53,856 bases of DNA from Thermoanaerobaculia bacterium (GTDB taxonomy: Bacteria > Acidobacteriota > Thermoanaerobaculia > Multivoradales > UBA5704): contig JBGAGQ010000041.1 in NCBI GenBank assembly GCA_044226625.1, positions 1 through 53,856 of the forward strand, read 5' to 3'. Under the pieces are notes generated by a model. The model was not told the DNA's origin, made no database searches, and saw only the letters and a list, made by a program, of their open reading frames with translations. Below are positions 27,401 through 40,032 of the stretch, piece by piece. Each line of letters starts with the position of its first letter. Positions within the stretch are counted from its first letter, which is position 1. The translations under genes were made by a program, and so were the position numbers.

Positions 27401-28259
27401 CCCGATGGGGCTACAGGAAGGGGCGGAGATTCGGCAACGTCAAAAAGATGCAAATCACCTCGGGTTTGATCCGCTTCACGGTCAAGAATCAGCAGAGGCT
27501 ATTCGGCGGACGCTATCCGACCCGTACACTCAAGGTCTTCTTCAAGTCCTGGGCGGTTGTTCCGAAGCCACTCTTGGGGCGATATCGGCGGCAGGTTCCG
27601 CTGGAGCAGCTGCGATTCCCGGACTATTTGCGATGATGCATGGTTCCGACACCTGCGCTGCGGGCTTGAAAACGCTTTACTACGGTCAGTCGAACGACAC
27701 AATCACTGAAGAGGGTCTTGAGAGGGCTCTAATTTATTCTGGCGTTCCTCCAGGGCGGGCGAGATATCTGGCTCAGCTTGGAGACGGCCTTCTAGGGGCG
27801 TTGAACTCGGCGTACGCATCCCGAGCGTTGATGCCGGAGTTTACGGTTCTTCCGCCGCCGACGCCGATGACCAACGAGGAGATACTGGATCTCGGGAAGG
27901 GACCGTTGGCGCCTGAAGCGGCGGCGAATCTAGGGGCTAGCATGGAAAGCAAGCCGCTTGCGCTTGGCATCGATGCTCACCTGGACGCCTTCGCAAGGGC
28001 GAGGGGAGCTTCCACTTGGAAGGAATTCTCAGACAGCACAAATTGGCGATCTGGAGTCCTGGATGCTCTTGCCGATAATGGTCGGACAGTCTATTTCAAT
28101 TTGGACGGCGTAGATGTCTGGGAGGGTTTGCAACGCGCTGCCTCCGGCAGGGGAGGCGCCACCGACTGGGAGCTTCTGATGATCAAGCAGAATCCGCAGT
28201 TCTGGGATAAGCTGATCTTCTGGAAAGACGGTTCGCCAGTCCCGAATCCATTTCAGTAG
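12498..28259 (+). CDS. Giant Rhs/YD-repeat polymorphic toxin (5253 aa) with Ig-like stalk, LVIVD-like propeller, DUF6531-like domain, Rhs core and C-terminal toxin CT1
   Basis: Signal peptide; many DTTAP...ATDAAGN Ig repeats; LVIVD-like repeats; [33 protein letters not shown]; YD repeats; core [32 protein letters not shown]...NGRDPMGL ending at 27413; lower-GC variable tip after it. Confidence 0.95.
   Translation: [5253 protein letters not shown]

Positions 28260-40032: not shown

Follow-up and report, generated by a model that had tools for sequence, protein, structure and literature searches.

Toxin locus and element copies in the window

The window analysed here is a whole contig of 53,856 bases (C32) from the 6.6-Mb, 133-contig assembly of a Thermoanaerobaculia bacterium (G000; contamination 5.5%). 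It carries a parent gene for a 5253-aa Rhs/YD-repeat protein and, directly 3' of it, a ~12-kb array in which Rhs core stubs with variable tips and small open reading frames (ORFs) are interleaved with copies of an insertion sequence (IS)-like element that encodes a putative DDE transposase (Table 1). In both orphan modules of the array, RHS_repeat and TIGR03696 matches precede a variable tip and a small ORF, and both modules run in the same orientation as the full-length parent. By its architecture this is an Rhs orphan toxin/immunity array, in which toxicity of the tips and its neutralisation by the small ORFs are predicted functions; the latter are candidate immunity genes by position.

The array is punctuated by an 18-mer, GTCCACCTGTCCGCCGAG, with six exact copies on the + strand (28624, 28699, 33186, 33262, 36930 and 37746) and a seventh with two mismatches at 37857, where 0.20 copies are expected by chance and seven were reached in 0 of 100 shuffles. 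The original prediction, made from the sequence of the window, had placed this 18-mer after four small ORFs at distances of 11, 94, 13 and 49 nt; these gaps hold when measured from the stops at 28612, 33091, 36916 and 37696, and the four sites are part of the seven. Copies A, B and D of the element each contain two tandem motif-initiated units of 75-111 nt, and fragment C contains one. Between copies A and B, identity is 92.7% over 1268 nt, a stretch that runs contiguously from the repeat past the gene to 56 nt beyond the start codon; the 18-mer thus belongs to the terminal repeat (TGTCCCGTCCAC...) of a ~1.26-kb IS-like element. Mapped over the assembly, the 18-mer occurs in the array and in one exact match on contig C130, which was rejected as a chance match within unrelated sequence. 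The element itself, stated earlier to occur nowhere else in the window, is confined to this contig in the whole assembly.

All four transposase copies lie on the - strand, antisense to the cassettes just as first described; they stand between Rhs stubs, and only that of copy B is intact. The transposase of copy A (28818-29827) is full length and frameshifted (three high-scoring segment pairs), that of copy D is matched by a segment pair at 38071-38511, and that of copy E (39154-39786) comprises the 3' two-thirds of the gene, inside a chimeric ORF. Fragment C is 95% identical to A and 93.5% to B over 184-186 nt. On the transposase-proximal side, A and B stop at an identical nucleotide but meet the Rhs core at different places: copy B adjoins parent position 25412, and copy A adjoins a 63-nt periodic stretch and then parent 25295. 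The proposal that both full copies are joined to the same YD segment of the parent therefore stands only approximately, the two junctions lying 117 nt apart.

Table 1. Features of the parent gene and the array, with positions in the window
Feature	Position	Strand	Description
Parent Rhs/YD-repeat gene	12498..28259	+	5253 aa; N-terminal array of immunoglobulin-like domains; variable C-terminal tip 1 from ~27413
Candidate immunity gene 1	28268..28612	+	114-aa ORF; candidate by position
Element copy A	28618..29883	-	Terminal-repeat units 28618-28692 and 28693-28767; inner 8-mer at 28866; transposase-proximal end 29883
63-nt stretch	29884..29946	+	Periodic (21 nt); separates copy A from Rhs stub 2; missing at the copy B junction
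Orphan 2	29947..32873	+	Rhs core stub 29947-32065 = parent 25295-27412 (94.4%), then tip 2; ORF 30057-32873
Candidate immunity gene 2	32873..33091	+	72-aa ORF; no family match (Pfam, NCBIfam)
Element copy B	33180..34443	-	Two terminal-repeat units; intact 304-aa rve DDE transposase 33473-34387; transposase-proximal end 34443
Orphan 3	34444..36665	+	Stub, conserved core end, tip 3; ORF 34464-36665; Rhs_assc_core
Candidate immunity gene 3	36662..36916	+	84-aa ORF; full-length DUF7660 (Pfam PF24693, E 3.5e-28)
Solo end module C	36924..37107	-	One terminal-repeat unit up to the inner inverted 8-mer; no transposase
632-nt unit	37108..37739	+	70-aa ORF (37484-37696); terminal repeats flank both sides
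Element copy D	37740..38503	-	Two terminal-repeat units and transposase 3' half, cut at the equivalent of 29349; 91% to A
Partial tip 2 duplicate	38502..38954	+	= 32417-32869, 98%
Element copy E	39013..39695	-	Element interior (= 33335-34015, 93.5%); no terminal repeats, no transposase N-terminus

In the parent protein, Glucodextran_B, Big_13 and Big_5 Pfam matches fall within the first 1500 aa, and the core homology between the parent and the stubs stops at 27412. Orphan 2 contains RHS_repeat and Rhs_assc_core domains. Stub 3 is a mosaic, its first 186 nt (34444-34629) being 90% identical to parent 25412-25597 and its remainder (34630-35664) being a divergent Rhs core with 40% aa identity to the parent, until the conserved core end. 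GC content falls from ~0.70 in the parent gene to 0.56-0.66 across the array. The tips of the toxin modules gave no Pfam match and the 114-aa ORF none in Pfam or NCBIfam, and the 70-aa ORF of the 632-nt unit has a weak match to DUF2283 (E 5.4e-4, below the cutoff). For DUF7660, a family of unknown function, the position of candidate immunity gene 3 suggests a role in Rhs immunity. The chimeric ORF around copy E (39151-40101, - strand) encodes 316 aa, of which the last ~210 are copy E and the first ~100 are unrelated, with no Pfam match. At the far end of the toxin array, ~11 tandem 21-bp units with internal inverted symmetry (CGAATTCGAATTTC plus 7 variable bases; 40914-41144) stand directly before three tRNA genes (Arg-CCG, Arg-TCT and Pro-TGG; - strand, 41191-41563).

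An element family of polymorphic-toxin loci with a single conserved terminus

The 304-aa transposase of copy B matches PF00665 (rve) with 46.2 bits (cutoff 32.6) and PF13683 (rve_3) with 52.7 bits (cutoff 26.5), residues D129, D187 and E223 are invariant in the transposase alignment (A5), and the closest solved structures are retroviral integrases. The enzyme is thus, as originally proposed, a DDE protein of the rve (retroviral integrase) superfamily, with a predicted transposase activity. Among the two best NCBIfam models, the IS481 model NF033577 gave 112.8 bits against a cutoff of 224 and the IS3 model NF033516 gave 104.3 bits against a cutoff of 160, and neither cutoff was reached. Source annotations of relatives read only 'integrase core domain-containing' or 'InsO family'. 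Judged from its sequence, the element belongs to an unclassified IS3/IS481-type branch. With IS481 and IS3 it shares the rve core, the intact DDE triad, a length of ~1.25 kb, a single transposase gene and one terminus of the form 5'-TG...CA-3', in keeping with the TG/CA terminal rule of that superfamily. It differs from them in the two model scores, in that no second inverted repeat was found and no target duplication was seen at the inspected junctions, and in that its copies are 6-19% diverged within a genome, confined to toxin loci and nearly absent from plasmids. Moreover, members of the family have a single ORF of ~300 aa, unlike the IS3 family criterion of two ORFs joined by a -1 frameshift.

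Element bounds were set by copy-to-copy comparison in G030, a genome from another family of the same order whose transposase is ~50% identical to that of the window, in the complete chromosome of a Nitrincola sp. and in Multivoradales. The element measures 1.24-1.28 kb in four lineages. The window, G030, Nitrincola and Multivoradales share the end 3' of the transposase, ...CGGAC(A/G)nn(G/C)(C/T)GGACGGGACA, which is the reverse complement of TGTCCCGTCCACCTGTCCG... of the window; the conserved terminus thus reads 5'-TGTCCCGTCCACCTGTCCGCCGAG on the + strand of the window and ...GGACGGGACA-3' in the orientation of the transposase. For a broad sample, one genome per species was scanned, 531 relatives were found and the best-scoring 80 loci were kept. 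In 67 of these 80 loci GGACGGGACA was present with at most one mismatch, its first copy mostly 201-268 nt 3' of the transposase match; there are often 2-6 copies of it, with a tendency towards CC at the first two flanking positions. Upstream of the transposase no inverted copy of the terminus was found, a near match within 450 nt being present in 1 of the 80 loci only (L073), and other forward-orientation near matches lay kilobases away or downstream. No 8-mer was common to more than 9 of 71 upstream regions, and these regions did not align even within the Acidobacteriota clade. The transposase-proximal end is sharp within a genome, agreeing within ~10-14 nt in G030 and in Nitrincola, and is not conserved between lineages. 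Truncated solo ends all retain the conserved terminus. In agreement with the original prediction of neither terminal inverted repeats nor target duplications, no terminal inverted repeat was found in the window, and the flanks of copies A and B and of the inspected Nitrincola copies, none of them a fresh insertion, showed no target duplication.

The family is a specialist of polymorphic-toxin loci, with its conserved terminus placed tail to tail with the immunity end. Neighbours were surveyed by tblastn with Rhs and CdiA queries, on which we relied since a Pfam survey of the longest neighbour ORFs was insensitive (RHS_repeat in 8 of 52 downstream and not among the 25 families listed for 51 upstream). 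Rhs/CdiA-like genes were convergent with the transposase in 19 of the 44 loci with at least 4 kb of downstream sequence and co-oriented in none, whereas fewer than one of the 44 would be expected by chance, assuming that ends of toxin genes cover ~1% of a genome. The convergent toxin genes lay 0.8-6.1 kb past the transposase match, 15 of the 19 within 2.4 kb, and Pfam added RHS repeats in two further loci (L069 and L103). On the upstream side, Rhs/CdiA-like genes were found in 5 of 47 loci. A sample of 401 genomes of the class to which the window belongs contained the family in 12 genomes. In all 11 newly fetched loci of this class (9 genomes) Rhs stood on the opposite strand; it was present on the side of the conserved terminus in 9 of the 11, the other two having no sequence there, and on the other side in 6. 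The hosts belong to Acidobacteriota, Pseudomonadota, Nitrospirota and Fibrobacterota. In the transposase tree the toxin-linked loci are scattered over many branches, and such a link is present in 20 of the 22 assessable loci of the acidobacterial clade.

The order of genes recurs in detail. All four element contigs of G030 show an Rhs end, a small ORF, terminal repeats, an antisense transposase and a truncated Rhs gene, and three such units are stacked on one contig. On the Nitrincola chromosome all four copies share one strand and a 16-kb stretch of a single CdiA orphan array, between CdiA-like fragments (Fil_haemagg_2, DUF637, Tox-REase-7), with more solo termini downstream. Multivoradales holds nine intact copies and several remnants, mostly in two clusters, and its transposases are spaced 4.2 to 25.9 kb apart, full-length Rhs units included. 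The recurrence of the module, first noticed within the window, is hence borne out with transposases of ~50% identity, in every newly fetched class locus and in a CdiA version, and the link between enzyme, repeat and cassettes is conserved in evolution and no local accident. The other element end often adjoins a 5'-truncated toxin gene at variable positions. No dispersed copies were present in G000, G030 or Nitrincola, and a match was found in 1 of 72,556 plasmid records. A metagenome scan with a single protein returned two loci at 47-48% identity.

Several further features of the ends and of the enzyme were observed. Every element copy contains an 8-mer, GTGGACGG, the inverse of the terminal CCGTCCAC (28866, 33429, 37097, 38024 and 39107), whose distance inward from the innermost terminal unit is ~170 nt in copies A-D; in B, ~40 nt separate it from the stop codon of the transposase, and fragment C extends 3 nt past it. 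One reading considered was that of a miniature element whose 8-nt ends are inverted (CCGTCCAC / GTGGACGG), since fragment C spans exactly the distance from the terminus to the inner 8-mer and a similar solo module occurs in G004. The idea is weakened by the solo ends of Nitrincola and G263, which start at variable points, and solo ends are therefore treated as truncated remnants. A cryptic second inverted repeat in the 63 nt to the right of copy A was likewise set aside, being of weak similarity and absent from copy B. The repeat was also considered as an attC-like or terminator hairpin and rejected: six folds of 75- to 150-nt segments on both strands, each compared with 200 shuffles, gave z values from -1.18 to +1.18. 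An Rfam scan of 27-42 kb gave no RNA family for the repeat, its only results being three tRNAs and noise below threshold. In the Nitrincola locus L119 the flank past the outermost terminus (~13900) is a tandem run of ACGGGACA repeats, each a short copy of the final 8 bases of the terminus. The N-terminus of the window transposase (34322-34387, - strand) contains a hydrophobic stretch of ~20 residues, MMALCFCLLGLVGLAALLAL, odd for a DNA enzyme, and its character is kept in G030. The sole plasmid relative, L131 (Undibacterium sp. YM2 pUYM01, 127727-168629), faces, in convergent orientation, a hypothetical gene and a 38.8-kb gene for a 'tandem-95 repeat protein'.

Divergence of the copies and recombination in the array

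Copies of typical active IS are near-identical within a genome, and those of the present family differ from one another by 6-19%. Pairwise ratios of nonsynonymous to synonymous substitution rates (dN/dS) of 0.07-0.39 were obtained in five genomes including that of the window, at dS values of 0.02-0.54 (0.088 for copies A-D). By these ratios the copies remained working genes while they diverged, and A, D and E were broken recently. Homologous recombination clearly acts in the array too. Copy D, the partial duplicate of tip 2 and copy E together form a decayed segmental duplicate of copy A, cassette 2 and copy B, in which A pairs with D and B with E, and the breakpoints of this duplicate are neither at the repeat nor in Rhs-core homology. 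Identity is moreover graded along the sequences, as stub 2 matches the parent at 98-100% at its 5' end and at 86-92% at its 3' end, and A matches B at 97-99% at both ends and at 88-91% in the middle. In sister genomes the element is decaying in place: in G003:C23 the terminus is fused to a transposase remnant after an Rhs orphan, and in G004:C111 a solo end follows an Rhs tip and a small ORF.

Origin of the array and alternative explanations

The region probably consists of stacked orphan Rhs toxin/immunity modules with copies of an IS-like element between them, the element acting at its own ends. Whole units of toxin gene, tip, immunity gene and element would arrive by transfer or become duplicated, and the transposase would then act at the element ends, by end-anchored adjacent deletions, by IS26-like circles or by insertion beside existing ends. 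An end-anchored intramolecular event would bring the retained element next to a new neighbour and excise a circle of the element and adjacent DNA. This action would trim displaced toxin genes to a core stub, tip and immunity gene and pack the units head to tail, selection for immunity setting the limits of trimming, and the directly repeated element copies together with the Rhs cores would offer portable homology for RecA-dependent duplication, conversion and tip swapping. End-anchored events would explain the sharp ends, the variable truncation points and the missing target duplications, as well as the graded unit lengths of Multivoradales and the tight packing against immunity genes protected by selection; insertion beside existing ends would explain the head-to-tail stacking and the multiplied termini. 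On this view the transposase itself would stack or trim the cassettes.

For such events there are parallels among known elements. Translocatable units of IS26 likewise consist of directly oriented IS copies flanking passengers, an arrangement present in the window, G030, Nitrincola and Multivoradales, and a circle of one IS26 and adjacent DNA, made by the transposase, re-inserts beside an existing copy without target duplication. In Burkholderia thailandensis, an IS2-like (IS3 family) 210-kb megacircle/composite transposon carries bcpAIOB, a contact-dependent growth inhibition (CDI) locus, where an enzyme of rve type brings about events of this kind (PMC6350997); it is a mechanistic precedent only. 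The IS26 and B. thailandensis elements differ from the present family in having both inverted repeats and near-identical copies, and their passengers are 210 kb or resistance genes.

Several observations weigh against this explanation. Three of the four transposase copies in the window are broken, and the transposase-proximal boundary differs by 31 nt between two Multivoradales copies. We know of no established way in which a DDE element with a single recognisable end moves; the asymmetric use of ends in IS2 is a possible precedent. The neighbour survey, called for by the original prediction, yielded the convergent Rhs/CdiA-like genes described above, but about 15 of the 44 assessable loci had no giant toxin-like neighbour and stood among ordinary genes. 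In the Gallionellaceae clade, the neighbours are giant proteins of RTX, cadherin or BapA type encoded in the same orientation as the transposase: in Gallionellaceae and relatives (L088, L089, L092, L102, L110 and L112) the conserved terminus faces large co-oriented ORFs, with RTX, cadherin or BapA-type Pfam matches in five of these six loci and none in the 1037-aa ORF of L102, so that the rule of convergent toxin genes is not universal. An acidobacterial copy, G035:C46, has neither a terminus nor a toxin neighbour. Loci from the same genome are non-independent, and the 80 loci of the broad sample are the top scorers among the 531. Furthermore, G003:C17 holds an orphan-like fragment without the element, and by published accounts orphans formed without any such element in enterobacteria. 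Finally, the core of cassette 3 has only 40% aa identity, yet the flanking element copies are 93-95% like the others, so that element and cassettes have not simply travelled together. This weakens the idea that every copy of the element came with its cassette from a distant donor.

Some of the same observations would suit an ordinary selfish IS that is tolerated in toxin loci and protected by selection for immunity, the arrays being built by RecA-dependent recombination and tandem duplication of the element together with a cassette, an explanation that we consider unlikely. Published orphan rhs-CT/rhsI and cdiA-CT/cdiI arrays have the same make-up, oriented like the parent gene: a truncated core, then a variable tip, then a small ORF. 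H-rpt, an IS-like sequence with an ISAs1-type transposase unrelated to rve and known from enterobacteria only, is likewise found habitually with Rhs C-terminal tips. Transposase and integrase genes between orphan modules are already in the literature, as one study describes them within orphan cdiA-CT/cdiI arrays and suggests transposition and site-specific recombination (PMC4927057), and another reports that Rhs tips of E. coli carry the IS-like H-rpt and that no transposition was observed (PMC3032704). The duplication of A-B as D-E, the identity mosaic, the existence of orphans without the element and the relatives beside housekeeping genes all agree with this explanation. It does not account for the strict orientation (19 against 0), for the fixed side with the conserved terminus toward the immunity gene, for the recurrence of the pattern with unrelated toxin scaffolds in four phyla, for the lack of dispersed copies in G000, G030 and Nitrincola, or for the same end nucleotide of A and B at different Rhs junctions. 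The original prediction had itself named relatives scattered at unrelated sites with ordinary terminal inverted repeats and target duplications as evidence against a dedicated role. In G000, G030 and Nitrincola the copies are clustered and have neither inverted repeats nor target duplications, but many proteobacterial relatives do lie beside other genes.

The dedicated role proposed at the outset was that of an integron-like system, in which the rve enzyme would be a domesticated site-specific recombinase, the terminal repeat would be att-like and cassettes would be captured, stacked and shuffled for the benefit of the host. Integrons likewise have an array of cassettes, each with a conserved repeat, and a recombinase gene antisense to the cassettes. 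The single conserved cis site beside the enzyme gene with no second end agrees with this proposal, as do the repeat at the end of every cassette, the 632-nt unit, which holds one small ORF and has repeats at either side, the solo repeats in arrays, the confinement of copies under purifying selection to toxin loci and the near absence of the family from plasmids. The system is not itself an integron. Integrons rely on a tyrosine recombinase, on attC sites (imperfect palindromes that fold in single-stranded form) and on a single recombinase gene with attI heading the array, and the window differs in all three: no tyrosine recombinase was found, the repeat is unstructured (z from -1.2 to +1.2) and four enzyme copies are interleaved with the cassettes. 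Most cassettes have an enzyme copy of their own, most copies in the window are decayed, solo ends are cut at variable points in the manner of remnants, breakpoints in the array lie away from the repeat, relatives occur in unrelated contexts and no excised or rearranged cassette was seen. An integron-like system is therefore improbable, and the earlier reading as a whole is partly supported; the repeat and the enzyme constitute an IS-like element that has one conserved end and toxin loci as its niche. A 2026 preprint cites IS sites and Xer systems as recombination determinants beside Rhs poly-immunity arrays; these concern a different enzyme class and different taxa. Lastly, it is very improbable that misassembly joined diverged repeats of a metagenome-assembled genome into a chimera, for although the assembly has 133 contigs and 5.5% contamination, and 1.2-kb repeats at 85-93% identity can mislead short-read assemblers, the same architecture is found in the complete Nitrincola chromosome, on long contigs of up to megabases and in 9 other genomes of the class, and the copies differ enough for unique placement.

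Beyond a stack of orphan modules with an element acting at its ends, the widespread, unnamed one-ended rve transposase family may tentatively be regarded as a dedicated cassette machine. From its one conserved terminus it would insert beside termini already present and cut or circularise the DNA around it, and so deliver, stack and trim toxin/immunity cassettes where giant secreted toxin genes (Rhs, CdiA and possibly RTX-type) have their variable end, in at least four phyla. The gain and storage of toxin/immunity pairs are usually ascribed to homologous recombination, with nearby transposases mentioned in passing. The main text of a large survey of polymorphic toxins, whose supplements may also list genes of this kind, mentions 'transposase' once and in another context (PMC3482391), and full-text searches outside subscription journals and supplements yielded no account of a particular rve family linked to toxin cassettes. 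What is new compared with published orphan arrays is a single defined family of elements whose cis terminus is conserved and whose orientation is fixed, common to Rhs and CdiA loci on unrelated scaffolds in distant phyla. A defined 304-aa enzyme, a defined ~24-nt site and predicted junctions now make its role testable. If the enzyme does not act on cassettes, the family would still be a genomic marker for orphan arrays and an IS with a niche in a single type of locus. If it does, it would represent a new route of weapon diversification by an unusual DDE element working from a single recognisable end, and the cassette machine would be, for interbacterial weapons, the transposase-based equivalent of an integron.

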